Source of the DNA: an uncultured Candidatus Saccharibacteria bacterium
Lineage (GTDB): Bacteria > Patescibacteriota > Minisyncoccia > Phycocordibacterales > DATDWN01
Assembly: GCA_964597675.1 (NCBI GenBank)
Contig: CAZQYV010000001.1
Coordinates: 10,903 to 59,057 of the forward strand
Direction: 5' to 3'
Length of the DNA: 48,155 nucleotides
This document shows, piece by piece, positions 1,267-47,173 of the stretch. Each line of letters begins with the position of its first letter. The first letter of the stretch is position 1. A program made the position numbers and the translations under genes. The notes below the pieces were generated by a model, which did no database searches, had not been told where the DNA came from, and was given only the letters and a program-made list of their open reading frames with translations.

Positions 1267-1280
1267 AGAGATATACTAAC

Positions 1281-1441
1281 ATAAAACTATTTACTCAACA
1301 TTTCTTTTTTGGAGCAATCTATCTAGCCCTACTGGGCTAGCGAACTTCTCGTCGTTCAAGAAAACAATGTCGGAATACCTCCTTGTTTTCTAAACTCCTG
1401 CGAAAGGCTCAAAAAAAGAAAAGTTTTCGTCATAGTTTTAT
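1281..1441 (-). repeat. Structured intergenic element, type C copy 1 (sense orientation = minus strand)
   Basis: About 100-nt core is ~96% identical to 46872-47035. Outer helix ATAAAACTA (1281-1289) pairs with TAGTTTTAT (1433-1441). Read on the minus strand: TTTGAGC-CTTTCGCAGG-[GAAAACAA..TTGTTTTC hairpin]-GACGAGAAGTTCG-[CTAGCCC AGTA GGGCTAG]-ATAGATTGCTCC. Confidence 0.8.
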
Positions 1442-1517
1442 TTTAATAGTGAGTTGTTTATATAAAAAATCGGCTACCTCCACAATGGAAGGTAGCCGCA
1501 TGAACAAGCTCGGCGCT

Positions 1518-5962: not shown

Positions 5963-6454
5963 ATGAGGATACTTTCTATTGACCCAGGGTATGAACGACT
6001 TGGTATTGCAATCATAGAAAAAGAACTAAAACAAAAGGAGGTTTTGCTATACTCTGCATGTTTTAAAACTAGTGCACGAATACCCCACCACGAGCGCCTT
6101 GTGTTTATTGGTGATGAAATAAAGAAAATAATAAAAAAATATAAACCAACAGCACTGGCGACTGAAAAATTATTTTTTAGTAAAAACCAAAAAACTGCCC
6201 TATTGGTAGCAGAAGCCCGTGGGGTGATTTTGTACACAGCGAGTGAGGCAGGACTTTCGGTCTTTGAATATACACCTGCAGATATAAAAATAGCAGTGAC
6301 AGGGTATGGTAGAAGTGAAAAGAGACAGATTATTGATATGGTTAAAAAGTTAATTGTTGTCACTTCAAAAACAAATTCGGATGATGAATTTGATGCAATC
6401 GCTATTGGACTAACTCATTTCGCCATCAACCGACCCAGTAAAGTGGAAAAGTAA
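5963..6454 (+). CDS. ruvC: Holliday junction resolvase RuvC
   Basis: The true start is MRILSIDPGYERLGIAIIE at 5963. The track ORF 5780..6454 carries an upstream extension overlapping yebC. 163 aa, with a C-terminal DEFDAIAIGLTH motif. Confidence 0.9.
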   Translation: MRILSIDPGYERLGIAIIEKELKQKEVLLYSACFKTSARIPHHERLVFIGDEIKKIIKKYKPTALATEKLFFSKNQKTALLVAEARGVILYTASEAGLSVFEYTPADIKIAVTGYGRSEKRQIIDMVKKLIVVTSKTNSDDEFDAIAIGLTHFAINRPSKVEK

Positions 6455-6576
6455 AAAACCTCATTGAGCAAGTTGTTTTGGGAGACTTCGCAAGGCCGAC
6501 GGGCCGAGACTTGAGAAATTTTTCAGCAGAAAAATATTCGTGCTCCCAAAACAACTTGGTGAAAAAGAGGTTTTTT
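6453..6576 (+). repeat. Structured intergenic element, type A copy 1
   Basis: Outer helix AAAAAACCTC (6453-6462) pairs with GAGGTTTTTT (6567-6576). Closing helix AGTTGTTTTGGGAG (6471-6484) pairs with CTCCCAAAACAACT (6543-6556). Core: ACTTCGCAAG-GGCC GACG GGCC-GAGACTTGAG-GAAATTTTTC AGCA GAAAAATATTC-GTG. It begins at the ruvC stop codon. Confidence 0.85.
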
Positions 6577-6685
6577 ACTTTTCCACAAAAGCCCTATTTG
6601 CAAAAAAATTATAATCTGGTACAAATATGGAAAATCTATCAAACATTGTTTGGAGATGGTATTACAAGACATTTAAAATATATCT

Positions 6686-13590: not shown

Positions 13591-13600
13591 TCACCCCCCT

Positions 13601-13942
13601 ATGCTTCCCATAAATAGACGTATTCCACGAAAGGATTTCCCTTTCATACTACAGTCTGGGAGAAGGATAAATAGCCCTCATATATTGGCTTATATATTGA
13701 AAATCGACACAGAAAGCCCAAGTCGATTTTCTTTTTCTGTGTCAAAAAAGGTGGCAATAAATGCTGTTGACAGGAATAAGTACCGAAGACAAGGGTATTC
13801 TATCATTTCCAAACTTACACCACATATACAAGCAGGATACAAGGTTTTTTTCTCTTTTAAAAAAGGAACAGGACAATTTTCCTTTAAAATACTTGAAAGT
13901 GAGGTTATTTCTTTATTAAGAACTAGTGGTGTGATACTATAA
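13601..13942 (+). CDS. rnpA: RNase P protein component
   Basis: Start MLPINRRIPRKDF at 13601, giving 113 aa. Contains the KKVAINAVDRNKYRR motif. The track ORF 13499.. is extended over rpmH. Confidence 0.85.
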   Translation: MLPINRRIPRKDFPFILQSGRRINSPHILAYILKIDTESPSRFSFSVSKKVAINAVDRNKYRRQGYSIISKLTPHIQAGYKVFFSFKKGTGQFSFKILESEVISLLRTSGVIL

Positions 13943-13947
13943 GCCAC

Positions 13948-14679
13948 ATGATTACTTCATTTTTCACTACAACCATTTTTCAGCCTTTATACAACGGTCT
14001 TATTTTCCTTATGGCCAGTATTCCTTTTGCTGATGCTGGGGTGGTTATTATTATTTTTACAATTATTGTAAAACTAGTACTTCTCCCCCTTTCACTCAAG
14101 GCATCTAAGGCGCAAATCGAGATGAAAGCGATTGAGAAAGATCTACAAAAAATAAAAGATACATATAAAGATAATAAAGAGGAATTATCTAAAAAAACAA
14201 TCGAATACTATCAAGAGAAAGGAATCAACCCATTTGCTAGTATTTTAATTTTAATTATTCAACTACCAATTGTTATTGGTCTATACCAAGTTTTCCTTAA
14301 ATCAGGACTGCCAAGTGTTGAAACAACATTGTTGTATACATTCGTCACAGCCCCAGTTGCTATTAATATGATGTTTCTAAATATTATCAATATATCTCAA
14401 AAAAGTGTTGTTTTGGCCATTATTGCGGGCATAACAACATACATGCAAATCAGTTTGGCAAATAATAATCAGCAACAACCATCTGGTAGTGGTATGCAAA
14501 ACGACATTGCACGAGCAATGGCAGTACAAATGAAATATGTTTTTCCTATTATCGTCACCTTTATTTGTTATTCTATCTCTTCTGCATTAGCATTGTATTG
14601 GATTACAAGTAACATTTTTGCTGTTCTCCAAGAAATTTACATAAAGAAAAAATATCACCAGTCTGTTGCGGTGATATAG
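13948..14679 (+). CDS. yidC: Membrane protein insertase YidC (short form)
   Basis: 243 aa, multi-TM, with PLSLKASKAQIEMKAIEKDLQKIK and NPFASILILIIQLPIVIGLY typical of YidC/Oxa1. Follows rnpA. Confidence 0.85.
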   Translation: MITSFFTTTIFQPLYNGLIFLMASIPFADAGVVIIIFTIIVKLVLLPLSLKASKAQIEMKAIEKDLQKIKDTYKDNKEELSKKTIEYYQEKGINPFASILILIIQLPIVIGLYQVFLKSGLPSVETTLLYTFVTAPVAINMMFLNIINISQKSVVLAIIAGITTYMQISLANNNQQQPSGSGMQNDIARAMAVQMKYVFPIIVTFICYSISSALALYWITSNIFAVLQEIYIKKKYHQSVAVI

Positions 14680-17185: not shown

Positions 17186-18208
17186 TTAAAAATTATTCCG
17201 TATATTTGTTGGAATGACAAATTGTAGATTGAAACTCATTGATGCTGATTGGAGTATTTTTGTTGCGTGACTTATAGAAACACCAATACGCGACGTACCA
17301 CTAGTCCCCTCTTTCTGTCGAAAGATTTGGTTCCTCTGTCCACTATCAACTGGAATTTGATTACCATTAAGGTTCCACACAAACGCTAATTCACCATTAC
17401 TTAAATTCTGTGTACCAAAGAAATATGGCATCGCAATAAGTTCCATCTCGTTTGATGTGTCCATTGTGTACGTATTTCTAATTGCTTTTTCAAACTTAGT
17501 ACCGTATAAAGGGTGTTTTTGATACATAATAACTTCTGGATCTTGAGGTGACACCACCACTTGACCAAATGCAACTCCAGAAGCATCTTTTGATGATACT
17601 TCTACAGAAACATCGAGGGGCCGAGAAATAACCGATGCAATCATGGTGTATGTGTTCATGCCATATCCGGAAAAGTCTGGCAGAGCACTTCCATTTCGTG
17701 TCCATGTATAAACAAGGTTTTTGGCCGGAATTTCTTGTCCATCTACACCGATAATATGTGGGATCGCAATAAAACTAATTTTATTTTGGTGGCTAAATAA
17801 AGCCTTTCCTCTGTAAAAAGGAGGAACGAAACTTTCTGATTGCCATATGAGGTCAACTGTCGCTGGTTGGAAAGAGAGTGTTTTTGTAATTACATTTCCA
17901 TTTATTGGTTGTATAACGATATCAAGTGTTGTTTGGGATCCAGCTTTGCCTGTAGTAAACGTAAATGTTGTTTTTCCTGTTCCAGATTGTGTATTTCCTC
18001 CGTTTACCTTCCATACAATAGACGCTTTGTTTAGATCTGTACTATAACTTTCAAGTTGCACTTGAACTGTTTGGTCAGGACCTGGATTTTCAGGGGTCAT
18101 TTTAACATTCACCACATTTTCTGGTGTCTGGTTAAATTGTGCTTGTGCAATAGAAAAAACGCCACACAGAGAGAAAGCAATCATAAAGACGAGAAGTACC
18201 CTATTCAT
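17186..18208 (-). CDS. Secreted beta-rich protein with two internally similar halves (unknown function)
   Basis: Likely start MNRVLLVFMIAFSLCGVFSIAQA at 18208 (signal peptide). Contains Ig-like beta-rich repeats. Only 3 nt separate it from the pilin gene. Confidence 0.6.
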   Translation of the reverse strand: MNRVLLVFMIAFSLCGVFSIAQAQFNQTPENVVNVKMTPENPGPDQTVQVQLESYSTDLNKASIVWKVNGGNTQSGTGKTTFTFTTGKAGSQTTLDIVIQPINGNVITKTLSFQPATVDLIWQSESFVPPFYRGKALFSHQNKISFIAIPHIIGVDGQEIPAKNLVYTWTRNGSALPDFSGYGMNTYTMIASVISRPLDVSVEVSSKDASGVAFGQVVVSPQDPEVIMYQKHPLYGTKFEKAIRNTYTMDTSNEMELIAMPYFFGTQNLSNGELAFVWNLNGNQIPVDSGQRNQIFRQKEGTSGTSRIGVSISHATKILQSASMSFNLQFVIPTNIRNNF

Positions 18209-18272
18209 TACTAGTATTGTACCATACCACTCTCTTCTCACTACAATTTTTATACACAATTATTAAAAAATC

Positions 18273-18398
18273 ACAAAACTCTTGGCTCGGTATACCTTTT
18301 TTAGAGCACGGATAAATCGTTGCTACGATTTTCCTCAAGTCTCGTGCCGTCGCACTTGCGAAGTCTCCAAAAAAGGTACACCTACGCCGTAGTTTTGT
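18273..18398 (-). repeat. Structured intergenic element, type A copy 2 (sense = minus strand), inside the T4SS-like operon
   Basis: Minus-strand read: ACAAAACT-ACGGCGTA-GGTGTACCTTTTTTGGAG-ACTTCGCAAG-TGC GACG GCA-CGAGACTTGAG-GAAAATCGT AGCA ACGATTTATCC-GTG-CTCTAAAAAAGGTATACC-GAGCCAAG-AGTTTTGT. It starts 10 nt after the virB4-like stop. Confidence 0.85.
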
Positions 18399-18408
18399 GA
18401 GCAAAATA

Positions 18409-20223
18409 CTATTGTCCGCTCTGCTCAAGTTCTGCTTTAGCTTTTTTAATAGAGAGAATTTGTGATGGGTCTGATGTAATGATCTGATCTTCTGTGTAAG
18501 ATGAGATAACTTTGACTGCAACATGCTTTAGTCCTGCAAAGAATATACCCTCACCAACATCTGATTCTAGAAGGAGGTATTTTTCCTCTTCTGTTAGACT
18601 AAAGACTTGTTGGAGACGATCAATCGAGGTTGGAGATTGTTTGAGGAGTATTTGGATAGATGAGTTTGTAATAATTGGCACTCCATATGGAGATTTCATA
18701 AAATCATCCACATCTTGGGTAATTGTTGCTAGTCCAAGGTAGTATTTTCGTCCACGTTTTGCCAAAGAAAGTAGAAATGAAGCCGTATCTTCAGATTTCA
18801 TCATCCACCACGCCTCATCAATTACCAAAAGTCGCTTCTTGAGTTTCTTTCGAATAACATTCCAGATATAGTGAGTGACGATATACATTGCAATCGGTTT
18901 CAACTCATCTTCCATATCGCGCAGAGAAAAGACAACTAATTTTTTGTTTATATCAACATTTGATGGTCGGTTTATAAATCCGGCCCATGTACCACGTGTG
19001 TATTTTGTTAGGCGCTGCGCCAACGACTCCCCCCCTTCCATACCAGAAAGGACTAATTCGAAATCAGACATTAGTGGAGGTTCAACATCTTTGAAATCCG
19101 AATCTGCTGTAATATCTTTCAAGGCATATGTTTCTGTAATTGCTCTGTCAATAATCGCATCTTCTTCTGGGGTTATTCCTCCCATCATGATACGAAATAG
19201 CCCAACAAGATTGATGATGTTTGAACGGAGAATATTTGAAAAAGATTCTCCTTCCCCAGGGGTTGGGAGTTCAAATGGGTTGATATGGTGTTCAGAGTTT
19301 AGGGAAATATTGAAATATCGCCCACCGACTGTCTCTGCTAAATATTCATACTCCCGTTCTGGATCAATAACAATAACATCTGTATCAAACATAAGTGTAC
19401 GGAGAATTTCCAGTTTGGTATTGTATGATTTTCCAGCACCAGATTTTGCAAATGTAATCGAATTGTAGTTTTCCAAAGAAAATCGGTCAAATAAAATAAG
19501 ACTAGAATTATGACGGTTTATACCATACAAAATACCCTTGTTTGATGTAAGATCGAAAGAAATAAAAGGAAAAAGACTGGAAAGTGGCGATGAATTGAGT
19601 TTGCTGTAGACTTTTAGTTCGTCTGTACCGATTGGTATAGTCGTTTTAAATCCTTGTTCCTGTTGAAATAGGGCTGGTTTTACATAAACCATCTTTGCTT
19701 CTAGGATTGATTTTATTTCGGATTCTATTTTATCGAGCTCTGCGTCATCGTTTCCATAGACAGTAAGATATAAACCAACATCAAAAAGCTTTTCCTGTGC
19801 TTGTTGAAGTTGATCGCGGAGGTTTTCTAGGTCTTGGTACGCTGTGTCTAGCATTGGATCACGGACCAACCCTTTTGCTTCTCGGGTATTTATTTGGCTC
19901 TGTACTTCAGCCACTTTTTTCTGAAATGTGCGCAAGACGTCTGATGTCTGTATTGGTTGAATATAAATTGATATATCAAAAATCTTATCTAGATTAATAA
20001 CCGGAGCAAACCAACTTTCTGATAAATATCGCGGGTAGGATATAACAAAAAAACTACGAAGGACTTTTTCTCCAAGATTAATTTCTTTTGGTGTTATATG
20101 GAGAGCGCTCGGAGCAATGATATCTTTTAACTCCAATGAACCTGCATCATATATCTCTTGGGGTAGGATAGATGTTATTTCTGGTTCCTTCTTTTTTGGT
20201 TGTAAAAAATCAAATAGTCCCAT
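18409..20223 (-). CDS. VirB4/TrsE/PrgJ-type type IV secretion ATPase
   Basis: Walker A FAKSGAGKSYNTK and Walker B LLVIDEAWWMM. About 600 aa with a VirB4-type N-terminal domain (YPRYLSESWFAPVINLDKIFDISIYIQP). The likely start MGLFDFLQPKK at 20223 lies 4 nt after the upstream stop. Confidence 0.85.
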   Translation of the reverse strand: MGLFDFLQPKKKEPEITSILPQEIYDAGSLELKDIIAPSALHITPKEINLGEKVLRSFFVISYPRYLSESWFAPVINLDKIFDISIYIQPIQTSDVLRTFQKKVAEVQSQINTREAKGLVRDPMLDTAYQDLENLRDQLQQAQEKLFDVGLYLTVYGNDDAELDKIESEIKSILEAKMVYVKPALFQQEQGFKTTIPIGTDELKVYSKLNSSPLSSLFPFISFDLTSNKGILYGINRHNSSLILFDRFSLENYNSITFAKSGAGKSYNTKLEILRTLMFDTDVIVIDPEREYEYLAETVGGRYFNISLNSEHHINPFELPTPGEGESFSNILRSNIINLVGLFRIMMGGITPEEDAIIDRAITETYALKDITADSDFKDVEPPLMSDFELVLSGMEGGESLAQRLTKYTRGTWAGFINRPSNVDINKKLVVFSLRDMEDELKPIAMYIVTHYIWNVIRKKLKKRLLVIDEAWWMMKSEDTASFLLSLAKRGRKYYLGLATITQDVDDFMKSPYGVPIITNSSIQILLKQSPTSIDRLQQVFSLTEEEKYLLLESDVGEGIFFAGLKHVAVKVISSYTEDQIITSDPSQILSIKKAKAELEQSGQ

Positions 20224-27205: not shown

Positions 27206-28655
27206 GTGTATCATGAAAAAATTATGTTATGCAATCCTAGGAATTTTATTTATTAGTCTTTGTGTTCCATTTTTTGTAAGTGCAGGGCAACTTGCACCTT
27301 CACCATTTAATGCGGGGGGCCAACTTGACGCTGGTTGGGCAAATATGGGTAGTGGAAAATACTACAATAGTACCCTCGGCATATATTCAAACGCAGACGG
27401 TAGTATTCAGAGTTATACATCAGAGATATTTAGTGCAAGTACACAGGGCAATCAAATACAAACTGTGGCTAGCGAGGATACTATGCAAGGAATTTGTATC
27501 TGGAACAACTATGATAAAACATTTCAGCCAGCAAATGATCAAGTTTTTGCAACCAGGGCCGTTGCAGACCAAATGGCACAGAGATTTGGAGGTACAGTAA
27601 TAGAAATTTATTTGAGTACAGATGGTCCATACAGAACGGTCAATATTTGTGCATTTCCTGCTGGGCAGACAACAATTCTCCAAGAAAATCTTGTACCAGA
27701 ATATACAGTAAAAGTAGGAAATTATCGTGGAAATGCGGCCGCAATCAACCATTTATTCCAAACATACCCATATTCAACAGCGTTTGCCATGGTTAAAGCA
27801 GAAATTGATGCTGCAAATAATACAAGCGGAGGAGGTGGTAGTGGTAACGGTGGAGGAGGGTCAGGCACCGGTGGAGGAACAACACCGCCAGTTATAACAT
27901 CAACACAAGGGGCAGCGGTTGAAGTTAAAATAAAAACAATGGCGCAACGAATGGCCAAAGACTACTTCGATGCATATAACAGAGCATCAGGATTGACTCG
28001 CAATACAACTACGATAGGTGGTTCTGGTGGGTTGCCGACTACTTGTCAGAGATTTGATAACAACTTAAAACTTGGAGATACAGGACCTGATGTATTGGCA
28101 CTAACACAAATATTAAAAATGGAGGGGTTATTGAATGAAACAACTGATACTTTTGATCAGACAGTCTTTCGTGCAGTTGTTCTTTATCAAGAACGCTACG
28201 CAGAAGAAATTTTGGTTCCTGCAGGGCTTACAGCAGGTACGGGTCTTGTAGGTACAAATACTCGAGAGCATTTAAACTCATTATGTGAAGAAGTAGATGA
28301 CACGGATAGTGGATCAGTAGGCAATACGGACCCCGTTGTAAATTTGGTGGTTGGAAATAACAATAAAATAGCAATATATAGTGTTGGAGAGACGATTCCA
28401 TATACTGTCACTATGACAAACGTAAATTCAGTCAGTTCTTTTTACAACACTATTCCAAAGGACACATGCGTCGGTGGTTCAACAAATGGCGAACAGAAAC
28501 CATGGATTGTTAGTTTCCCTGTATCAAACAGCGTTTTATCTGAAACAGTCAAATCATGTCAGGCAGGATCAACATATATCATCAGTGTTATAGGTACAAA
28601 TACAACAACAGGAAAGATTAGTGCATCATCTGTTTCGGTTTACATTAGACCATAG
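27204..28655 (+). CDS. Secreted protein with Gly-rich linker and peptidoglycan-binding (PG_binding_1-like) domain
   Basis: Signal peptide MKKLCYAILGILFISLCVPFFVSA and linker SGGGGSGNGGGGSGTGGGTTPP. The segment LKLGDTGPDVLALTQILKMEGLL...FRAVVLYQERY is a PG-binding repeat. The C-terminal part is beta-rich. Confidence 0.65.
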   Translation: MCIMKKLCYAILGILFISLCVPFFVSAGQLAPSPFNAGGQLDAGWANMGSGKYYNSTLGIYSNADGSIQSYTSEIFSASTQGNQIQTVASEDTMQGICIWNNYDKTFQPANDQVFATRAVADQMAQRFGGTVIEIYLSTDGPYRTVNICAFPAGQTTILQENLVPEYTVKVGNYRGNAAAINHLFQTYPYSTAFAMVKAEIDAANNTSGGGGSGNGGGGSGTGGGTTPPVITSTQGAAVEVKIKTMAQRMAKDYFDAYNRASGLTRNTTTIGGSGGLPTTCQRFDNNLKLGDTGPDVLALTQILKMEGLLNETTDTFDQTVFRAVVLYQERYAEEILVPAGLTAGTGLVGTNTREHLNSLCEEVDDTDSGSVGNTDPVVNLVVGNNNKIAIYSVGETIPYTVTMTNVNSVSSFYNTIPKDTCVGGSTNGEQKPWIVSFPVSNSVLSETVKSCQAGSTYIISVIGTNTTTGKISASSVSVYIRP

Positions 28656-28659
28656 TTTT

Positions 28660-28783
28660 ATAAAATTACAGTGAAGGTGTGTCTTTACCCGAACCTTGCA
28701 CAGGCCGACGGGCCGAGCAGAGCAAAAAGCCAGCAGGCTTTTATGTGTGTGAGGGGAAAGACACACCAAGCCAAGAATTTTAT
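28660..28783 (+). repeat. Structured intergenic element, type B copy 1
   Basis: ATAAAATT-ACAGTGAA-GGTGTGTCTTTACCC-GAACCTTGCACA-GGCC GACG GGCC-GAGCAGAG-CAAAAAGCC AGCA GGCTTTTATG-TGTGTGA-GGGGAAAGACACACC-AAGCCAAG-AATTTTAT. It starts 5 nt after the upstream stop. Confidence 0.85.
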
Positions 28784-28829
28784 AAAACTAGTAGAATAAA
28801 TAAAAACACATCTCTGTCACGAGGTGTTT

Positions 28830-29615
28830 TTATTTAAGATTCGAAAGTAGCGAGAACCATGTATCAATTGATATATCCTCTGCCCTACCATGTATATCTA
28901 TACCTGTTTTTTCAAAAGCAGAAAGTAGTTTCTCTTTCGGATACAGCACAGAAAGATTTGGGAGAAGTTGTTTTCTCTTATGAGCAAAACCTGCATGAAT
29001 TAAATCAAAAAAATCTTTTTCCTTTACTCCATTAAATCTATTTTTTGATATATTTTTTATGTGTATTACAGCAGAATCAACCGATGGTGATGGTGTAAAT
29101 GCCCCTTTACCAACTGTCCGCACATATGTCGGTATACCGTATGCTTTGATAGAAAGAGAAAGTAAACTTTCTTTTTTATCACGTGTGACAATTCGATCCG
29201 CAACTTCTTTTTGTACCAGAAGCGTAATTGACGCTGGTTGCTTTTTTGACTCCAGAAAATTTCTAATAATTTGTCCCGTAATATAGTACGGTATATTTGC
29301 AATTAATTTATATTCTCCAATATTAAGATGAGATATTTCTAAAAGTAAAATATCATCATGAATGAGAGTAAGTTTTCCCGATGCAATTTCATTAGGAAAT
29401 TTGTCAGACAAAATAGGAATAAGACGATCGTCTTTTTCTACTGCTATAACTTTGGCACCTGTGGCAAGCAATACTGCAGTCAGAGACCCTTCACCTGGTC
29501 CGATTTCCAAAATAGTATCATCGGCAGTAACCCCGCCAGCGACGACAATATCGTTCAAGATATGAGGCGATTTTAAAAAGTTTTGACCGAGTGATTTTTT
29601 TGCTTTAATACTCAT
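28830..29615 (-). CDS. rsmA: 16S rRNA (adenine1518/1519-N6)-dimethyltransferase RsmA/KsgA
   Basis: KKSLGQNFL start motif and SAM-binding EIGPGEGSLT, 261 aa. Confidence 0.9.
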   Translation of the reverse strand: MSIKAKKSLGQNFLKSPHILNDIVVAGGVTADDTILEIGPGEGSLTAVLLATGAKVIAVEKDDRLIPILSDKFPNEIASGKLTLIHDDILLLEISHLNIGEYKLIANIPYYITGQIIRNFLESKKQPASITLLVQKEVADRIVTRDKKESLLSLSIKAYGIPTYVRTVGKGAFTPSPSVDSAVIHIKNISKNRFNGVKEKDFFDLIHAGFAHKRKQLLPNLSVLYPKEKLLSAFEKTGIDIHGRAEDISIDTWFSLLSNLK

Positions 29616-35408: not shown

Positions 35409-35449
35409 ATCATTTTGCTAATTAATAAATTTAATATTCTCATCAAAAA

Positions 35450-35597
35450 GTAAAATTTATTTTTTCGCGCCCCCGCAGTCGCAAAGCATTGTTTCGTCAA
35501 TGACCCGAGTTAAGCGAGGGCTCTTGACGAATTTGCGACGAGGACAGCCGAGAGCTTCGCTGGAAGCTTGAGGGGAGCAAAGAAAAATATCTTTTAC
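35450..35597 (+). repeat. Structured intergenic element, type D (more distant relative of types A-C)
   Basis: GTAAAAT...CGCGCCCC-CGCAGTCGCAAAG...[CGTCAA..CCC..GGG..TTGACG]..TTTGCGAC-GAGGACAGCCGAG-AGCTTC GCTG GAAGCT-TGAG-GGGAGC-AAAGAAAAATAT-CTTTTAC. The 3' end overlaps the pnp stop codon (35594-35596). Confidence 0.6.
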
Positions 35598-37726
35598 TTC
35601 ACTTTATCAAACCACTCCGGATCAATTTCTTTTACCGAGAGTTTCAATCGTCCACGTTCATCAACTTCTTTCACCACAACCGGTACAGTGTCTCCAACTT
35701 TTAGTAATTCATCTACAGTCTTTATTCTTTTTGGAGAAATTTCTGAAATATGAAGCAAACCTTCAGTCCCACCATTAATTCGTACAAAAGCACCAAATTC
35801 TGTTATTTTTACCACTTCACCTCGGAATCTGTCCCCCACTTTTGCTTCCCATGTCATATTTTCTATAATTTTCTTCGTCTCTTCACACCCCTCTTTTTTG
35901 CCAGTAATGTAAACTGTACCGTCGTCTTCAATATCAATTTCTGCTCCCGTTTTCTCTTTGATCTCTTTGATTGTCTTCCCGCCTGTGCCAATAATCAATC
36001 CAATTTGATCTGGCTTGATTGAAATTGAAATAATATGTGGCGCATATTCAGAAATACTCTCACGTGGCGTGGCAATCGCCTCGGTTATGACTTTTAGAAT
36101 TTGTAATCTTGCAATTCTGGCTTTTTCAAATGCTTCTTTCAGGATATGGAGAGGAACTCCGGAAATTTTAACATCCATTTGGACAGCAGTTATCCCTGTT
36201 TCTGTTCCTGCTACTTTGAAATCCATATCGCCATGGTGGTCCTCTGGCCCTTGAATATCTGTCAGGATTACGTAATTTTGATCCTGAGCGGAGTCTACGG
36301 ATCTTGCTTTGCTCGACATCATTAATCCACTTGCAATTCCAGCCACAGGCCGAGCGATCGGCACTCCACCGTCCATTAATGCCAAAGTACCTGCACAGAC
36401 TGATGCCATCGAGGTTGACCCGTTTGAGGCCATCGATTCTGCAACAAGGCGTATTGTGTATGGAAATGCTTCTTTGTTTGGCAGTACTGGGACAAGAGCT
36501 TTTTCAGCTAGTGCTCCATGCCCGACCATTCGGCGATTTGTGCCCCCCATTCTACCCACCTCTCCTGTTGAATATGGCGGAAAGTTGTAGTGGAGCATAA
36601 ATCGCTTATGACCAGATTGAACTTCCATAGTATCTATTAGTTGTGCATCCCCTGGTGCACCAAGTGTTAGTACGGACAGAACATGTGTTCCTCCACGATA
36701 AAACGTGCCTGCCCCGTGCAATATTTTTGAAATTCCACCGACACGTGCAACAAGTGGGCGAATCTCGTCTAGTCCTCTTCCGTCCGGCCGTCTTTTATTT
36801 TGTATAGCTTCTGTATGGATTACCTCATCAATTTTTTCTTGTAACAAATTGTCTGCCTGTGTGGTATCAGTTCCATCTGGCAAGTTTTTGATTTCGTCTT
36901 CCCATATTTCTTCAAGGGCGGTCAAATCACTTTTTCCAGCCGTGCCAGAAAAAACTTTGTCCATCAAAATTGGTTGAATTTTTTCCTCAAATAAAGTCAG
37001 AACCTCTGGCGAGACAGTTGGTTTTGAGACAACAACTTTTTCTTTCCCAATTTCATTTATGATTTGTGTCTGGAAATCTTGCATTTTTGCAAGTTCTTTT
37101 TGGGCCATCTCCATTCCAGCAAGGACAACATCTTCTCCCACCTCACTACTTCCCACTTCAATCATATTTATTTCTTTTCCAGTACCACAGACCAGTAAAT
37201 CCAAAGCATAGGCATCGGTATTTCTCTGTGTGTATGTTGGATTGATTTCGAAATTAGCATTTTTCCCTATTCTAACTGCAGAGACTGGGCCATTCCATGG
37301 AATATGTGATGTACTGAGCGCGATAGATGCTCCGAGGACGGCAAGAATATCAGGATCATCTTCCCCGATGGACAAGACAGTGATAACAACCTGAACATCA
37401 TGTCGAATCCATTGGTCAAACAAGGGTCGAATTGTTCGATCGACGATACGGCCAGAGAGAATTGCTTCGTCTGTTGGCCGTCCCTCACGTTTTTGAAAAC
37501 GGCTACCGAGAATTTTCCCAGTAGCATAAAATTTTTCTTCAAAATCAACAGTCAAAGGAAAAAAATTAGCCCCATCCTTTGCTTGTTTTGACATAACTGC
37601 AGTAGCGAGCACAACAGTATCGCCATATCGTACTAGACATGACCCATGTGCCTGTTCTACCAAGTCACTAAATTCAATCTCAAGTGTTCGTCCACCGTAC
37701 TCTGTCGAAAAAGTTTTTGTTTTCAT
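35594..37726 (-). CDS. pnp: Polyribonucleotide nucleotidyltransferase (PNPase)
   Basis: 710 aa with two RNase PH domains, a KH domain (GLIIGTGGKTIKEIKEKTGAEIDI) and an S1 domain (GDRFRGEVVKITEFGAFV). Confidence 0.95.
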   Translation of the reverse strand: MKTKTFSTEYGGRTLEIEFSDLVEQAHGSCLVRYGDTVVLATAVMSKQAKDGANFFPLTVDFEEKFYATGKILGSRFQKREGRPTDEAILSGRIVDRTIRPLFDQWIRHDVQVVITVLSIGEDDPDILAVLGASIALSTSHIPWNGPVSAVRIGKNANFEINPTYTQRNTDAYALDLLVCGTGKEINMIEVGSSEVGEDVVLAGMEMAQKELAKMQDFQTQIINEIGKEKVVVSKPTVSPEVLTLFEEKIQPILMDKVFSGTAGKSDLTALEEIWEDEIKNLPDGTDTTQADNLLQEKIDEVIHTEAIQNKRRPDGRGLDEIRPLVARVGGISKILHGAGTFYRGGTHVLSVLTLGAPGDAQLIDTMEVQSGHKRFMLHYNFPPYSTGEVGRMGGTNRRMVGHGALAEKALVPVLPNKEAFPYTIRLVAESMASNGSTSMASVCAGTLALMDGGVPIARPVAGIASGLMMSSKARSVDSAQDQNYVILTDIQGPEDHHGDMDFKVAGTETGITAVQMDVKISGVPLHILKEAFEKARIARLQILKVITEAIATPRESISEYAPHIISISIKPDQIGLIIGTGGKTIKEIKEKTGAEIDIEDDGTVYITGKKEGCEETKKIIENMTWEAKVGDRFRGEVVKITEFGAFVRINGGTEGLLHISEISPKRIKTVDELLKVGDTVPVVVKEVDERGRLKLSVKEIDPEWFDKVK

Positions 37727-37772
37727 TCCGTTAAAAATTATTTTATATTCAGATTATTTCGATTCGTAGTCT

Positions 37773-37897
37773 ACAAAATTACGGCGAGATCGTATCTCTT
37801 GTGGAGACTTCGCAAGGCGGGTAGCCGAGACTTGAGCGATTTTTCAGCATAAAAATACGCGTGCTCCACAAGAGATAGGATGAGCCAAGAATTTTGT
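37773..37897 (+). repeat. Structured intergenic element, type A copy 3
   Basis: ACAAAATT-ACGGCGAGATCG-TATCTCTTGTGGAG-ACTTCGCAAG-GCG GGTA GCC-GAGACTTGAG-CGATTTTTC AGCA TAAAAATACG-CGTG-CTCCACAAGAGATA-GGATGAGCCAAG-AATTTTGT. Both flanking genes are on the minus strand. Confidence 0.85.
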
Positions 37898-37910
37898 AAT
37901 GTACAATTAA

Positions 37911-38273
37911 CTAATCATTCATATGCATCTTGCAGGTTTTCGCTGCAGGATTTGCTTCCAAACGGTCACTTTCAATTGGCTGTTTACATGTCTCGCACAT
38001 GCCGTAGGTGGAGTGTTCAATTTTATCCAAGGCAACAATAACCTCATTTAAACGAGTTTCAAGTTGTTCTAAAATTCCTTTGTTGTTCTCATACTCCTCT
38101 ATACCATCTGCGACGACATTTTCATCAGCCGCATCAACATCAATATCTGGCTCTGTTGCCTCCCAATCAGCAGAATTTGCTGGGTTTTTTCTGCCCAATG
38201 TAGCGAGTTCACCCTCTAGTACTTTTTTCTCCTCTTCGAGTAATGACTTAAATTGTTGTGTATTTAATTCCAT
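37911..38273 (-). CDS. DksA/TraR-family C4 zinc-finger protein
   Basis: 120 aa with an acidic coiled-coil N-terminal part and CETCKQPIESDRLEANPAAKTCKMH. Confidence 0.8.
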   Translation of the reverse strand: MELNTQQFKSLLEEEKKVLEGELATLGRKNPANSADWEATEPDIDVDAADENVVADGIEEYENNKGILEQLETRLNEVIVALDKIEHSTYGMCETCKQPIESDRLEANPAAKTCKMHMND

Positions 38274-38304
38274 GGCGACATTATATCACCACACTGTAGC
38301 CCTG

Positions 38305-39213
38305 TCACCTTGTAGTGTGTCCTGTTAGATATTTACCTAGAAGCGCATTAAATATGGCTTCATGCGAGGTAATAAGTATTGTGTTTTTGTCTATAAATGA
38401 ATACAACAAGATAGTTTTTCCTATTTCATCAGTCACAATTCGAAGATCTTTGTTTCGAAGTTCCTCGTCTGTAAAGGTGTATGGTGTGGATGTGCTCCTG
38501 ATACCAAATATTGGGGCAAGATCTGTAACCATCTCTTTTTCCCATGAAAGCATACCCGCGTAGCCAAGGGCCGAGTCTTCGGTAGTCAGAATGATAAATG
38601 GTTCATTTGTACTAAACGAGTATATACCAACCATGTATGGGCTAGTCAGTGTACGAGACAGACTATCTGGCATATGGGGTCCAAATAGACTAGCAACTTT
38701 TCTTGCGGTTGTTCCTGTAGCAGTTGTGCCAGAACCAATGATATTAAAATATAAAACCGAATTTACTGGTTGTTTAAAATCGCGTACACCGAAACGAATA
38801 GTTTCGGCGAATTGTTCATATGACACACTGTCTTGTATTGTTTGACTGTGTGAAAAACTAATTATTGTCTCTTTCTTTATTACCTCAATTTTTTTATTAT
38901 TTTGCGAAACAGAATAATACACTCCACCGATAGCACTAATACCAAGTATGAGTAGTAGTGTACCAACAAGACCGAATAATCTGTTTTTAGCACCAGTAGG
39001 TATAGTGTCTCCTATTTGTGGTTCTGGTTGTGCTAATCGTCTTTTTTGTTCAGCAACAGCAATAGTTGTTATAGAAGTATTAGTATGTGAAATCGCTTCA
39101 GCAACATCACCTTCGTATGTACGAAGTGATTTTAGACGAATATGTTGCTCTGGCGAGACGGATGGAGAATGCTCGCCTTGAGGTTCCTGTGATGGTACAT
39201 TATTTTCTTCCAT
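38305..39213 (-). CDS. Single-pass membrane protein of unknown function (302 aa)
   Basis: About 90-aa cytoplasmic N-terminus, TM helix LFGLVGTLLLILGISAIGGVYY, then about 190 aa extracytoplasmic. Confidence 0.55.
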   Translation of the reverse strand: MEENNVPSQEPQGEHSPSVSPEQHIRLKSLRTYEGDVAEAISHTNTSITTIAVAEQKRRLAQPEPQIGDTIPTGAKNRLFGLVGTLLLILGISAIGGVYYSVSQNNKKIEVIKKETIISFSHSQTIQDSVSYEQFAETIRFGVRDFKQPVNSVLYFNIIGSGTTATGTTARKVASLFGPHMPDSLSRTLTSPYMVGIYSFSTNEPFIILTTEDSALGYAGMLSWEKEMVTDLAPIFGIRSTSTPYTFTDEELRNKDLRIVTDEIGKTILLYSFIDKNTILITSHEAIFNALLGKYLTGHTTR

Positions 39214-39255
39214 ATATTATAAGTGTAACAAAATACAACAAAGGAAAACAAATTT

Positions 39256-39378
39256 ACAAAACAACGGTGAAGGAATATCGTTTTTGGAGACTTCGGAGCT
39301 CGACGGAGCGAGATTGAGCGAATGTCTAGCAAGACATATCGCGTGCTCCAAAAAGGATATTCCGAGCCAGTGTTTTGT
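39256..39378 (+). repeat. Structured intergenic element, type A copy 4
   Basis: ACAAAACA-ACGGTGAA-GGAATATCGTTTTTGGAG-ACTTCGGA-GCTC GACG GAGC-GAGATTGAG-CGAATGTCT AGCA AGACATATCG-CGTG-CTCCAAAAAGGATATTCC-GAGCCAG-TGTTTTGT. Confidence 0.85.
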
Positions 39379-39383
39379 AAGAA

Positions 39384-39935
39384 CTATACATGATCTACTT
39401 GTCCGCGAGGTCGTTTGTTTTGAGGGCGAAAACCGAGTAAATATTTCCGTGGGTTTTCATCCAAATCAATAAAGTCGTCGGAGACCTCGATCAATTTGCT
39501 AGATGATGATTTACCAAAAGACATCACTTCTACCTGACAACCCTCATTCACCTGTAAATATTCTACCAATGGAACAAAGTCGCCATCACCAGAAATAATA
39601 ATCACCGCATCAAGTTTTGGTGCAAGTTTAATCGCATCAACCGCAAGTCCAACATCCCAGTCTGCTTTTTTTGCTCCTCCAGCAAATATTTGGAGGTTTT
39701 TTGTTTTTGTTTCTATTCCCACTTTTTCTAGTGCTTCAAAAAAACTTTTTTCTTCTCCTGATTCTGTGGTGATAACATATGCCACGGCACGAATAAGAGA
39801 TCGTCCCGCTAGACCATCTTTGACCACTTGGTCAAAATTAACTTTTGCACCATATATGTTTTTTGCACAGTGGTAGAGATTTTGCGTATCTATAAAAATA
39901 CCCACGCGCTGATTTTTGTGTTTTATAACTGCCAT
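39384..39935 (-). CDS. NYN-domain (LabA/DUF88-like) predicted ribonuclease
   Basis: RVGIFIDTQNLYH...AVIIISGDGDFVPLVEYLQ...GCQVEVMSF, the typical NYN/LabA acidic-residue pattern. Confidence 0.8.
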   Translation of the reverse strand: MAVIKHKNQRVGIFIDTQNLYHCAKNIYGAKVNFDQVVKDGLAGRSLIRAVAYVITTESGEEKSFFEALEKVGIETKTKNLQIFAGGAKKADWDVGLAVDAIKLAPKLDAVIIISGDGDFVPLVEYLQVNEGCQVEVMSFGKSSSSKLIEVSDDFIDLDENPRKYLLGFRPQNKRPRGQVDHV

Positions 39936-39961
39936 AATAAATAATTAAAATATAAAAATGT

Positions 39962-40085
39962 ACAAAATTACTTACTCAGTATGTCTTTCTCCTCACACAC
40001 ATAAAAGCCTGCTGGCTTTTTGCTCTGCTCGGCCCGTCGGCCTGCGCAAGGTTCGGATAAAAACATACTTTCGCTGTAATTTTGT
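39962..40085 (-). repeat. Structured intergenic element, type B copy 2 (sense = minus strand)
   Basis: The core matches B1 except for one substitution (GCGCA versus GCACA). Closing helix AGTATGTTTTTATCC / GGAGAAAGACATACT. Outer helix ACAAAATTA (39962-39970) / TAATTTTGT (40077-40085). Confidence 0.85.
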
Positions 40086-40171
40086 TATGAAGTGACTCAA
40101 TAAGAAAGAACCTATCAATAAGTATACCAAACAATAGAAAAATAATCGCCTTAAGCGATTATTTTTAGAGA

Positions 40172-40438
40172 TTATTTCTTGAGGCCAAGTTTTTTAATCA
40201 GAACAGCATATCGTTTTGGGAATTTCTTTTCGAGGTATTTTAGATGAGTTTTTCTATCTGCAACCATTTGCAACAGTCCTCGGCGAGAGTGATTATCCTT
40301 AGCATTTTTCTTTAAATGTGAGGCAAGCTCGTCTATTCGCTTGGTCAAGACAGCAATTTGCACCTCAGGAGAGCCAGTATCTGTCTCATGAATCTGAGTT
40401 TCTTTGATAACCTTTGTTTTTTTGGTTTTCGTAAGCAT
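40172..40438 (-). CDS. rpsO: Ribosomal protein S15
   Basis: Start MLTKTKKTKVIKE at 40438. GSPEVQIAVLTKRIDELASHLKKNAKDNHSRRGLLQMV is the S15 signature. Confidence 0.9.
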   Translation of the reverse strand: MLTKTKKTKVIKETQIHETDTGSPEVQIAVLTKRIDELASHLKKNAKDNHSRRGLLQMVADRKTHLKYLEKKFPKRYAVLIKKLGLKK

Positions 40439-40563
40439 TGACACTAGGATAGCATAAAAGATCACTCCATGCAAGGGCTACAGTGTAAATGCCATAATCA
40501 GGTATAAAATCCGCAAAACAGCCACACCGCAGTGTCGCACAATAATTATGATATAATTTACCC

Positions 40564-41496
40564 ATGGCTTCTCTCAAAAAACTTAAACAGCAGTTTCTAG
40601 AGTATATTGAAATCGAAAAGGGTCGCTCGGTAAATACTGTAGAGAATTATGACCGCTACCTCACTCGTTTTTTGGAATATATTAAAAATGATTCTCCTGC
40701 TGATATTACAGATACATCAGTACGGGAGTTTCGACTTTGGCTTAATCGACAGCCACTAAAAAACCTCGGTAAACTGAACGAAACACTAAGCAAAAAAACA
40801 CAGAATTATTATTTGATCGCCATTCGGGCATTTCTCAAATATATGGCACGTCAGGAGGTCAAAACCCTGCCTGCAGAGAGGATTGAGCTTGCAAAAGTAC
40901 AGGAGCGATCTCTAGATTTGATCACTGAGCCAGAATTGAAGCGACTACTGAATGCTCCAAATGGAGATAGTCTCAAGGATTATCGGGATCGTGCTATACT
41001 TGAGCTTCTTTTTTCTACTGGGTTACGTGTGTCAGAGCTATGTTCCCTATCTCGTGATATCGATTTGCACTCCGATGAAATTTCTATTCGTGGTAAAGGA
41101 GGAAAAGTACGAGTGGTTTTTGTTTCTGACAAGGCCAAGAAGGTTGTAAAAGACTATTTATCAAAAAGAAAAGATATGGATGATGCTTTGTTTATAAAAT
41201 TAGCCGAGAATTTGCCTAAAACAATGGGTAGAAAAGGAGAAAATTTGGGCTTAACAAAACGCTCTATCGAGAGGATAGTCAAGGAATTAGCTATTAAAGC
41301 GGGTATATCTAAAAAGGTTACTCCCCATATGATGCGCCATCTTTTTGCTACCGATCTACTTTCCAATGGAGCAGATCTTCGTTCAGTTCAGGCCTTGTTG
41401 GGTCACGCAAATATTGGCACTACCCAGATCTATACACACGTAACCGATAAACATCTCCGTGATGTTCATAAAAAATTTCACAACAAAAGTGAATAA
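40564..41496 (+). CDS. XerC/XerD-type tyrosine recombinase
   Basis: 310 aa with an SAM-like N-domain, R..LLFSTGLRVSEL, and HMMRHLFATDLLSNGADLRSVQALLGHANIGTTQIYTHV (R-H-R-Y catalytic pattern). Confidence 0.85.
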   Translation: MASLKKLKQQFLEYIEIEKGRSVNTVENYDRYLTRFLEYIKNDSPADITDTSVREFRLWLNRQPLKNLGKLNETLSKKTQNYYLIAIRAFLKYMARQEVKTLPAERIELAKVQERSLDLITEPELKRLLNAPNGDSLKDYRDRAILELLFSTGLRVSELCSLSRDIDLHSDEISIRGKGGKVRVVFVSDKAKKVVKDYLSKRKDMDDALFIKLAENLPKTMGRKGENLGLTKRSIERIVKELAIKAGISKKVTPHMMRHLFATDLLSNGADLRSVQALLGHANIGTTQIYTHVTDKHLRDVHKKFHNKSE

Positions 41497-41497
41497 A

Positions 41498-41529
41498 ACA
41501 AAAAACACCCTCTAGAGAGGGTGTTTTTT
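41498..41529. terminator. Bidirectional rho-independent terminator
   Basis: AAAAAA-CACCCTC-TAGA-GAGGGTG-TTTTTT between convergent genes. Confidence 0.8.
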
Positions 41530-41541
41530 GTTATAAGTCTA

Positions 41542-41799
41542 TTATGACAAATGCTTTGAAAGCAATTTTGTCATTTCAAACATATTTACCACTGCTTTGC
41601 CATCAAAGATCTTTTTAAGATTTTCGTCAGCAACAATGTTGCGCTTATTTTTTGGATCCTGAAGATCGTGTTTTTTAATATACTCCCAGATCTTCTTTGA
41701 AACTTCTGATCGAGGCATTGGGCCTTTGCCAATAACGACAGCTAAGTCTTCACTCACTGTCATCGGCTTCATAAACGCTGAATTTGTCTTTGTAGGCAT
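41542..41799 (-). CDS. SWIB/MDM2-domain protein
   Basis: 85 aa. The segment LAVVIGKGPMPRSEVSKKIWEYIKKHDLQDPKNKRNIVADENLKKIF matches the SWIB fold signature. Confidence 0.8.
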   Translation of the reverse strand: MPTKTNSAFMKPMTVSEDLAVVIGKGPMPRSEVSKKIWEYIKKHDLQDPKNKRNIVADENLKKIFDGKAVVNMFEMTKLLSKHLS

Positions 41800-41894
41800 A
41801 ATATTTTGTTACGTATAAAATAAGATATGTGTATTATACCACCATATAGGATGATGTACACCACATACCTTTTCAGTATGGTACACTAGAACCA

Positions 41895-42692
41895 ATGAAA
41901 ATCATATCATGGAACGTAAATGGGCTTCGAGCAGTTCACAAAAAAGGGCTGTTTTTACCCTTTCTAAAAGAGCATAATCCAGATATATTATGTCTCCAAG
42001 AAATAAAATCTAAAAAGGATCAAAATGAAATCGATTTACCAGAATATACAGAGTTTTGGAACCCTGCCACACGTGCGGGATACAGTGGCACGGCAATATT
42101 TACAAAGCAAAAACCGGTGTCTGTTTCACATAATTTGCCAGAGGCAATATGTGCAAAATATGGCTTAGATAAAGACCAATTTGGAGATCCAAACACAGAG
42201 GGGCGTGTTTTAACTCTCGAATATGAAACATTTTTTCTGGTCACTGTATATACACCAAATTCTAAAAGAGAATTGACTCGACTTACCCTAAGACACAAAC
42301 AGTGGGATCCTGCATTTCTGGCATATGTTGATGAATTACAGAGACAAAAACCAATCATTTTTTGTGGTGATTTAAATGTTGCACACACAGCAGATGATTT
42401 GGCTAATCCAAAACAAAATGAAGGTGAACATGGGTACACAAAAGAAGAGCGAGAGGGTGTGGATAACATTATAAAAAAGGGCTTTGTCGATACTTTTCGT
42501 CACTTTATTTCAGGCAATGGCCACTATACATGGTGGACTCATTGGCAAAATGCGCGCGAGAGAAATGTTGGGTGGCGCATCGATTATTTTTTCATAAGCA
42601 ACACTCTCCTCTCCTGTCTAAAGAGTGCACGTATTCTTGCAAATGTAATGGGGTCAGATCATTGTCCTGTAGAAATTGAAATAGAAAAATAA
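41895..42692 (+). CDS. xth: Exodeoxyribonuclease III (AP endonuclease)
   Basis: MKIISWNVNGLRA, LCLQEIK, GDLNVAH and SDHCPV motifs, 265 aa. Confidence 0.9.
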   Translation: MKIISWNVNGLRAVHKKGLFLPFLKEHNPDILCLQEIKSKKDQNEIDLPEYTEFWNPATRAGYSGTAIFTKQKPVSVSHNLPEAICAKYGLDKDQFGDPNTEGRVLTLEYETFFLVTVYTPNSKRELTRLTLRHKQWDPAFLAYVDELQRQKPIIFCGDLNVAHTADDLANPKQNEGEHGYTKEEREGVDNIIKKGFVDTFRHFISGNGHYTWWTHWQNARERNVGWRIDYFFISNTLLSCLKSARILANVMGSDHCPVEIEIEK

Positions 42693-42716
42693 GGACTTAT
42701 CCACAGATTTGTCCTT
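42691..42716. promoter_or_regulatory. Perfect DnaA box presented in a hairpin loop
   Basis: AAGGAC-TTATCCACA(42697-42705)GATTT-GTCCTT, lying directly after the xth stop. Confidence 0.4.
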
Positions 42717-43003
42717 GAAGTCCTTTACATGACTTTTATGACTGATATACTACATACAGATCACAGGTGGAATGTCCGATAATAAGACGGACAATAAACC
42801 TGAATTTGTTCATTGTAATAAGATGTACTTTGGGACTCGGCCGGTCCCCTATTAGAAGGTAACTTGGTTTTAGCATAGTGAGGTGATCAAAATATCCTCA
42901 ACTATCTACTATTTATTTTTATTTTTGTGATATTGTATCCAACTATTGTTATTGCTGTGTTACTCTTCTCCCCAAATCGCTCGTCAGTGTGTATTGTGAA
43001 ATA

Positions 43004-43027
43004 CGCTCATGACTGAGCGGTTTTTTT
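43004..43027 (+). terminator. Rho-independent terminator at the end of an orphan 377-bp spacer
   Basis: CGCTCA-TGAC-TGAGCG-G-TTTTTTT. A longer alternative stem is possible with 42978-42989. Confidence 0.7.
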
Positions 43028-43069
43028 ATAATAAAAATTCTCTGAAAGTATCAAGGTTTTGCATAAATC

Positions 43070-44769: not shown

Positions 44770-44782
44770 ATTAATTTTACTG

Positions 44783-46871: not shown

Positions 46872-47035
46872 AAAAAAATTTCTCGCTCAGTGTATTTTTT
46901 CTGGCGCAATCTATCTAGCCCTACTGAGCTAGCGAACTTCTCGTCGTTCAAGAAAACAATGTCGGAATACCTCCTTGTTTTCTAAACTTCTGCGAAAGGC
47001 GCCAGTCAAAACACACCTTCACAAGGAATTTTGTG
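46872..47035 (-). repeat. Structured intergenic element, type C copy 2 (sense = minus strand)
   Basis: The core is ~96% identical to 1281-1441. The closing helix changes compensatorily (CTGGCGC/GCGCCAG here versus TTGAGC/GCTCCAA in copy 1). Hairpin CTAGCTC AGTA GGGCTAG has a U-G only on the minus strand. Confidence 0.8.
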
Positions 47036-47049: not shown

Positions 47050-47173
47050 ACAAAACCTCTTGCTCAGTACATCTTTTACCTCACACACATAAAAGCCTGC
47101 TGGCTTTTTGCTCTGCTCGGCCCGTCGGCCTGCGCAAGGTTCGTCAAAAGACGTACTTTCGCCAAAGTTTTGT
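47050..47173 (-). repeat. Structured intergenic element, type B copy 3 (sense = minus strand), in tandem with type C copy 2
   Basis: The core is identical to B2. Closing helix AGTACGTCTTTTGAC / GGTAAAAGATGTACT has two G-U pairs on the minus strand only. Outer helix ACAAAAC (47050-47056) / GTTTTGT (47167-47173). Confidence 0.85.

Follow-up and report, generated by a model that had tools for sequence, protein, structure and literature searches.

The window analysed here, that is, the whole stretch of 48,155 nt, carries a dnaN, dnaA, rnpA and yidC cluster at 10669-14679, which suggests that a replication origin lies within it; most genes to the right of this cluster (14.7-26.3 kb) are on the minus strand. 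Three closely related elements, referred to as type B and numbered B1 to B3, were seen on inspection of the sequence at the positions and on the strands of Table 1, where the sequence-only reading had placed them. Open reading frames (ORFs) and Pfam matches put each of them shortly after a gene on the same strand: B1 starts 5 nt beyond the stop codon of a 483-aa gene (28655 to 28660), the edge of B2 at 40085 lies 86 nt beyond the rpsO stop (40172), and the edge of B3 at 47173 follows the protease stop (47192) by 18 nt. Measured between the termini A(C/T)AAAA...TTTT(G/A)T, every copy has the 124 nt first reported, and the three closing helices read exactly as they had been quoted. The core, GAACCTTGC(A/G)CAGGCCGACGGGCCGAGCAGAGCAAAAAGCCAGCAGGCTTTTATGTGTGTGAGG, is 64 nt long and differs among the copies only at the A/G position, as had been described. 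In a repeat search, the copies were 85-88% identical over 106-124 nt, and the 12-mer GGCCGACGGGCC was found four times against 0.02 expected, the fourth occurrence being in type A, at 6494. B1 has a folding energy of -58.1 kcal/mol (z = -8.2 against shuffles), and its palindrome reaches beyond the 124 nt (28653-28790), taking in the TAG stop codon of the 483-aa gene. An extra helix, P2a (CU(U)GC/GCAG), surrounds the GGCC hairpin.

Table 1. Family members, arms of B1 and neighbouring terminators in the window; scores are those of covariance model R1.
Feature	Position	Strand	Remarks
Type B copy 1 (B1)	28660..28783	+	89.0 bits, E 5.6e-30
B1 P2a/P2 arm	28695..28720	+	C-U-(U)-G-C / GCA / GGCC-GACG-GGCC (28703-28714) / GA / GCAG; resembles 23S rRNA helix 86
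B1 P3 arm	28722..28746	+	GCAAAAAGCC-AGCA-GGCUUUU-A-UGU; loop AGCA 28732-28735; bulged A 28743
Type B copy 2 (B2)	39962..40085	-	91.4 bits; between rpsO terminator and NYN-domain gene
Type B copy 3 (B3)	47050..47173	-	91.7 bits; 18 nt past trypsin-like protease gene stop
Type A copy	6443..6586, core 6470-6557	+	56.5 bits, E 4.5e-18; stem overlaps ruvC stop codon
Type A copy	18271..18400, core 18292-18379	-	48.4 bits; P2 = GUGC-GACG-GCAC
Type A copy	37772..37898, core 37792-37878	+	37.2 bits; antisense to dksA-like and pnp neighbours; P2 loop diverged
Type A copy	39254..39380, core 39275-39360	+	50.2 bits; antisense to neighbours; P2 = GCUC-GACG-GAGC
Type C copy	1274..1448, R1 match 1312-1410	-	16.4 bits; 36.5 bits for 1300-1422; outline as in the other types, 46-nt hairpin replaces short P2
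Type C copy	46872..47034 (approximate ends), R1 match 46902-47003	-	15.1 bits; directly downstream of B3
Canonical intrinsic terminator hairpin	28797..28836 (scan 28808-28827)		between B1 and ksgA; separate from element
Canonical rpsO terminator	40138..40166	-	upstream of B2; separate from element

A covariance model built from type B only (R1) and run with filters off returned nine family members in the window: the three type B copies, four of type A and two more, here called type C. The family in the window is thus not confined to types A and B. Type B scored 89-92 bits and type A 37-56 bits; since a model made from type B alone matches all four type A copies (E 4e-10 to 3e-17), the two types can be aligned under one covariance model and share their architecture, as proposed. 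The 46-nt insert of type C (1340-1385, 46930-46975) is a hairpin itself, GAAAACAAGGAGGUAUUCCGACAUUGUUUUC, and holds a Shine-Dalgarno-like AAGGAGG. All types in the window genome agree in their termini, ACAAAAyTAC...GTrATTTTGT, and in the small internal loops, rich in G and A, of the basal stem, so that the nine copies (124-175 nt) are small, non-coding, multi-copy and bounded by terminal inverted repeats, as are miniature inverted-repeat elements (MITEs). A relative, L055, has other subtypes that retain only the P3 arm with its ANYA loop and bulged A; its termini are again genome-specific and common to its subtypes (AAATCTCGTCGA...GAGAAAGAGATTT).

The window holds other structured palindromes. 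One of them, at 4145-4310 (-) in the 378-nt spacer from the T2SSE ATPase gene to ruvB, is closed by 26-nt arms (96% complementary) around a multi-branch core; its minus strand folds at -80.8 kcal/mol (z -12.3), and R1 does not match it. Another, G+C-rich, occupies 35448-35599 between a 115-aa gene and the pnp stop codon, has a folding energy of -56 to -57 kcal/mol whichever strand is taken (z about -4), and has a core unlike types A, B and C. The minus-strand region 35594-40474 (rpsO, NYN, a 302-aa gene, a dksA-like gene and pnp) houses four elements, namely B2, A2, A4 and the 35448 palindrome; pnp is missing from the rpsO-NYN block in the relatives examined. There is also a 24-bp hairpin, 96% complementary, at 45743-45794; its beginning overlaps the last bases of the tRNA at 45677-45747.

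Beyond the window, an exact scan for the 21-mer GGCCGACGGGCCGAGCAGAGC, with one genome per species, gave 39 loci: 32 are clear homologues in metagenome-assembled genomes (MAGs) of Patescibacteria (Nomura-, Taylor-, Vogel-, Azambacteria, Paceibacterota, Parcubacteria), four are Stahlbacteria 23S rRNA, and three are chance matches in high-G+C actinobacteria. R1 also matches about 45 further copies in Parcubacteria/Patescibacteria genomes and metagenomes. The three 124-nt copies are thus members of a large family of hairpin repeats dispersed in the small genomes of Patescibacteria (CPR). Proteins named Zambryskibacteria, Parcubacteria or Patescibacteria match the window's KsgA at 63-68% identity, and the window itself therefore derives from an organism of this kind, a Zambryskibacteria-like Parcubacterium. 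Several MAGs labelled "Candidatus Saccharibacteria" have near-identical flanks or synteny in common with loci labelled Parcubacteria or Nomurabacteria (L002 vs L009/L031), and the flanks of L021, which bears the same label, are nearly identical to those of the Parcubacteria RAAC4_OD1 locus L004. In these MAGs, the label is probably generic and unreliable, and we therefore do not claim that the family reaches Saccharimonadia. Rfam 15 at the gathering threshold found three tRNAs only in the window and, at E up to 10 on 28600-28850, nothing that covers the element core. Open-access full text, searched for the core sequence, CPR structured RNAs or RNA motifs and CPR MITEs, together with one Patescibacteria review, yielded no description of the family, which is absent from Rfam 15 and belongs to the interspersed palindromic repeats of bacteria.

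Each element forms a hairpin of about 125 nt whose inverted termini are specific to the genome, whose basal stem is interrupted by small internal loops rich in G and A, and whose apical junction is conserved. In the family fold predicted by RNAalifold, the basal stem (about 30 bp) continues into P1, which leads to a three-way junction from which the P2a/P2 and P3 arms branch off; the P2a/P2 arm reads CU(U)GC-GCA-GGCC-GACG-GGCC-GA-GCAG, and P3 has 10 bp, an ANYA loop and a bulged A. The consensus of 35 copies, aligned gaplessly with MAFFT, runs: variable stem, CCUUGCGCA, GGCC-GACG-GGCC, GAGCAGAGCAA, 7-bp variable stem, AGCA, stem', A, UGYGUGC, stem'. Covariation was assessed on 54 matches aligned to R1, an alignment that is model-fitted and hence somewhat favours the fold. 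Standard pairs fill 95.7% of its cells (71.6% in shuffles), 24 of the 26 pairs have changes on both sides, and the covariation score is 0.643, as compared with 0.185 in shuffles (reached in 0/500) and 0.06-0.12 for slid partners. All ten P3 pairs have double compensatory changes, with 99.1% of cells paired. The gapless MAFFT alignment agrees with this result, and in it RNAalifold finds six P3 positions with double changes only. The three-way fold is thus strongly supported, and the structure is conserved in every copy found outside the window, where its absence would have spoken against the first proposal.

P2 itself covaries outside the exact-match set (GGCC, GGUC/GACC, GCUC/GAGC, GUGC/GCAC, GCGC) around a constant GACG loop, and C35-G60 turns three times to A-U (CG 50, AU 3), which favours the CU(U)GC/GCAG register of P2a. 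An alternative pairing of the core, GCRCA with UGYGU, was rejected, for A64-U84 at the base of P3 becomes G-C in three sequences with A42 unchanged. The G+C content of the matches ranges from 0.42 to 0.74 across hosts, yet the unpaired core nucleotides are the same to the base. Such highly conserved junction nucleotides, together with the lack of matches to known families, could also belong to an independent small RNA, a new self-cleaving ribozyme or an element with an RNA intermediate, the three-way junction then serving as a catalytic or reverse-transcriptase-binding core; hammerhead and twister ribozymes are likewise multi-copy and dispersed. We regard this as highly improbable, given that no conserved promoter or flank was seen (promoter matches within the termini are no commoner than in shuffles), that no reverse transcriptase lies nearby in the window, and that the exact 21-nt core was not found in viral contigs.

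The closing helices had been proposed as part of the element, with the proviso that they might turn out to be unrelated, pre-existing terminator stems. Additional type B copies of the same lineage, taken from a metagenome scan, bear the proposal out: in L049, L051 and L052 the helices are homologous to those of the window and differ from them by double substitutions (e.g., AGTACGTC/GATGTACT vs GGCACATC/GATGTGCC), which shows them to be part of the element and to change in a compensatory manner. The further claim that the substitutions are G-U-compatible in one orientation only was correct in direction and overstated in degree, since the preference amounts to about 2:1 (57 G.U vs 30 A.C in the basal arms, p = 0.005). 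In 46 of 47 copies, folding is more stable on the sense strand (mean -55.3 vs -48.5 kcal/mol), and the basal stems are approximately 94% Watson-Crick and 6% G.U. The strand asymmetry is, in short, real but moderate.

Gene context was scored from simple ORF calls around 47 copies, of which 14 have convergent neighbours, 15 are sense and eight antisense in tandem spacers, and four have divergent neighbours. The family is accordingly enriched at gene 3' ends, with an orientation that is not tied to transcription. The initial impression that each copy starts just after a same-strand gene thus survives as an enrichment; as a rule it fails, because of the antisense copies in tandem spacers and the antisense type A copies 37792 and 39275, and it must also accommodate the copies inside ORFs and the empty orthologous sites of B1 and B2 described below. 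B1 lies between a stop codon and a separate canonical terminator, that is, within the 3' UTR, and B2 follows the terminator that rpsO has of its own and precedes the NYN gene by 26 nt. An intrinsic-terminator scan called these separate terminators (28808-28827 and 40166-40138) and none for the elements, which are therefore not the terminators themselves. An elaborate intrinsic terminator, or a pre-existing terminator stem with an inserted core, might have been expected from copies 5-86 nt past stop codons, often between convergent genes, and from a very stable hairpin with a U-rich 3' terminus (AAUUUUGU). It is nonetheless the least credible of the explanations considered: the strong stem has no U-tract directly after it, canonical terminators adjoin B1 and B2, the closing helices are homologous among copies, and copies occur also in divergent promoter regions and inside ORFs.

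The long, almost wholly Watson-Crick stems let both strands fold, and copies occur in both orientations, features that would suit a host signal at the DNA level, i.e., a cruciform or single-stranded hairpin used in recombination, replication, segregation or DNA uptake, on which Patescibacteria depend. Such a role is nevertheless improbable, as the conserved core is non-palindromic and strand-specific, the nine copies of the window (four on + and five on -, mixed on both sides) have no orientation bias with respect to the dnaA-dnaN region, and a number that ranges among relatives from none to nine copies per 20-48 kb is unfit for an essential chromosomal signal.

This variation in copy number was traced in relatives in which the rpsO-NYN-uvrD-ksgA-type IV secretion gene block is syntenic. 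The B2 site is empty in L044, where the rpsO-NYN spacer is 106 nt long and has no element, and the B1 site is empty in L046, where ksgA and the homologous convergent gene are only 10 nt apart. With R1, two copies were found in L046, three in L055 and none in L042-L045, L054 and L056; two relatives are together free of copies over about 41 kb of syntenic DNA, and a third relative has two. Contig L053, 92-98% identical to window 39912-48155, has orthologues of B2 and B3 and lacks the type C copy that adjoins B3. Its junction shows no clean duplication when compared with the window, and a deletion between similar 3' termini is equally possible as an insertion. Insertion polymorphism between related genomes, as known for MITEs, is thus seen in the empty sites, in an insertion within an ORF and in the type C copy missing from L053. 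Some positions are nevertheless retained across species, with flanks in common among L002/L009/L031 and between L004 and L021.

Copies are also found inside genes that stay open. The uvrD gene of L046 carries an antisense copy that leaves the ORF open and adds an insert of about 51 aa exactly at the R1 match, so that its UvrD has 698 aa instead of the 642-660 aa of orthologues, three of which are without the insert; the same copy is present in an independent assembly (L047). Likewise, the phospho-sugar mutase gene of L016 has an antisense copy in frame in the domain I-II linker, in the same relative frame as the uvrD copy, and the protein has extra residues between the matches to domains I and II. 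In-frame insertions of this kind recall the Rickettsia-type palindromic elements (RPE). Other insertions have been observed in the same region. L056 has a uvrD of 1036 aa with Hint/intein domains (5548-8658) and a TraG-like ATPase gene with a LAGLIDADG-bearing intein (17739-19475), which means that the same syntenic genes host other selfish insertions. In L053, an extra 150-aa ORF of about 460 nt lies between tRNA genes and the CCA-adding enzyme gene (4988-5440, vs window 44542-44772); it has CxxC and H-N-H-like motifs and no Pfam match, and by its appearance would encode a mobile endonuclease.

Neither a target-site duplication nor a shared target motif was seen around six copies whose flanks were compared, or in the filled/empty comparison of window and L053. 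The 48-kb window encodes no transposase (Y1 transposases included), reverse transcriptase or HUH enzyme, and contains no transposase-bearing autonomous partner with the same termini. Its sole integrase is Xer-like, and one is found beside rpsO also in L054, which has no element. Integron attC sites were considered and rejected, since the termini are without GTTRRRY and the copies are dispersed among housekeeping genes.

The P2a/P2 arm resembles helix 86 (H86) of 23S rRNA. E. coli 23S 2347-2370 reads CUGC-GA-GCGU-GACG-GCGC-GA-GCAG, then one nucleotide, then helix 87; the element reads CU(U)GC-G(C)A-GGCC-GACG-GGCC-GA-GCAG, then A, then P3. Loop, bulge purines and closing helix are the same, the 4-bp stem differs by compensated pairs, and in both a one-nucleotide linker leads to a second hairpin; the element differs in two extra pyrimidines on the 5' strand, and its P3 far exceeds H87 in length and carries another loop. 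The four Stahlbacteria 21-mer loci fall in 23S helix 86, with the exact 21-mer present; R1 gives 20-22 bits on their H86-H87, a circular score because these loci were found by means of that 21-mer. In the E. coli 23S fragment, R1 scores highest at precisely 2347-2370, although weakly (9.4 bits, E 0.43). No patescibacterial 23S rRNA was present among the fetched loci, and a literature search for proteins contacting H86 identified no partner. We take the resemblance as a real lead rather than established mimicry. It is rather doubtful that the apical junction would be a functional mimic of H86-H87, recruiting a ribosomal protein or assembly factor to many transcripts or using it for its own propagation; if true, the family would be a mobile structured RNA element of a new class, one confined to ultra-small bacterial symbionts.

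On the best reading, the family is comparable in its behaviour to mobile DNA and not to a signal fixed at gene ends: its copy number varies patchily, its sites are polymorphic, its copies take either orientation and have termini in common within a genome, and some of them lie in frame inside genes. We put at somewhat better than even (about 0.55) the probability that it is a selfish, non-autonomous palindromic element whose folded strand is recognised by a trans-acting enzyme; selection would act on the fold of its single strand. Copies would spread at the DNA level through this enzyme, encoded elsewhere, for which the apical junction of the folded single strand may be the recognition module; the stems would stay complementary because the substrate is a hairpin, and insertions would persist chiefly in the stretch just beyond stop codons, the place where damage is smallest. 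From there, passive transcription would carry them into mRNA as a very stable stem-loop, which could block 3' exonucleases or be cut by RNase III, and the arm resembling helix 86 could serve as a binding site for an RNA-binding protein of the host. The part kept across hosts, to the base and with covariation, is the interior fold and not the termini; this suggests a conserved partner that acts on the single strand when folded. Against mobility stand the absence from the window of a mobilising enzyme, the lack of a target-site duplication or consistent target, and the fact that the sole clean polymorphism, the type C copy by B3, could be a deletion. Moreover, one would seldom expect purely selfish DNA to keep its unpaired core unchanged at every base from host to host, which suggests a cellular partner that is itself conserved, and the sense wobble bias and better sense folding fit an RNA role as well as a single-stranded DNA role.

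These last points bring in the main rival, a cis-acting RNA that benefits the host, which is possible if on balance unlikely. Its junction, especially the H86-like P2 arm, would bind a ribosomal or other conserved RNA-binding protein on many mRNAs and control decay, processing or translation coupling, and the multiplicity of copies would reflect many regulated transcripts. Loop and junction nucleotides that are the same in every copy within a strongly covarying fold agree with it, as do the sense bias in folding (46/47) and wobble (57:30), the CUGC/GCAG helix, GA bulge, 4-bp stem and GACG loop in common with E. coli H86, the enrichment at gene 3' ends, and the location of B1 in a 3' UTR between stop codon and terminator. 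It accounts less well for the third or so of tandem-gene copies that are antisense, as are the two in-ORF copies, and for the empty orthologous sites of B1 and B2 and the relatives with no copies in 20 kb; the flanking genes are without common function, and the independent match to E. coli H86 is weak. The two readings are compatible.

Patescibacteria have genomes of roughly a megabase, thought to be streamlined, yet the nine family elements and two other structured palindromes of the window add up to about 1.6 kb, or some 3% of 48 kb that hold dnaA, rpsO, pnp and ksgA. The interest of the family derives from its breadth, its density in a minimal genome and its rRNA-like arm: selfish-repeat behaviour combined with the conservation and covariation of a functional RNA makes it a tractable case of how a repeat recruits or imitates a core cellular RNA. 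From a practical point of view, a covariance model would prevent misannotation of the copies as ORF extensions, protein insertions or terminators, and would give a marker of strain-level variation in metagenome-assembled genomes.

Among known systems, ERIC, RPE and MITEs appear to be the closest analogues. REP/BIME sequences are also extragenic palindromes gathered after stop codons and possible stabilisers of mRNA 3' ends, and both might plausibly be recognised in folded, single-stranded form; REPs, however, are 20-40 nt long, with a GTAG head and a RAYT gene, whereas the present elements have 124 nt and no GTAG terminus, and no RAYT gene was seen in the window. ERIC (or IRU) sequences of Enterobacteriaceae and Vibrio are 127-bp imperfect palindromes, with dozens to hundreds of intergenic copies in transcribed regions and in both orientations; they have no known transposase, are conserved in sequence across distant hosts, and have not been reported in frame inside ORFs. 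The family is similar in its length of about 125 nt, single long imperfect hairpin, multiple copies in both orientations, conservation of sequence between distant hosts and lack of a known transposase, and differs in its unrelated sequence and host group and in a covarying apical three-way junction on variable stems. RPEs are palindromic repeats of about 100-150 bp in reduced, host-dependent genomes, both intergenic and in frame in protein genes, as here; they have no sequence relationship with the family and are confined to one genus, whereas the present core occurs in many Parcubacteria lineages with a conserved junction fold. MITEs such as Correia elements (Neisseria), RUP and BOX (pneumococcus) and bcr1 (Bacillus cereus) are likewise small, non-coding and multi-copy, with terminal inverted repeats common within a genome, presence/absence polymorphism and co-transcription with neighbours. 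No target-site duplication or parent insertion sequence was found for the family, unlike MITEs, and it conserves its interior while its termini vary by host, the reverse of a typical MITE.
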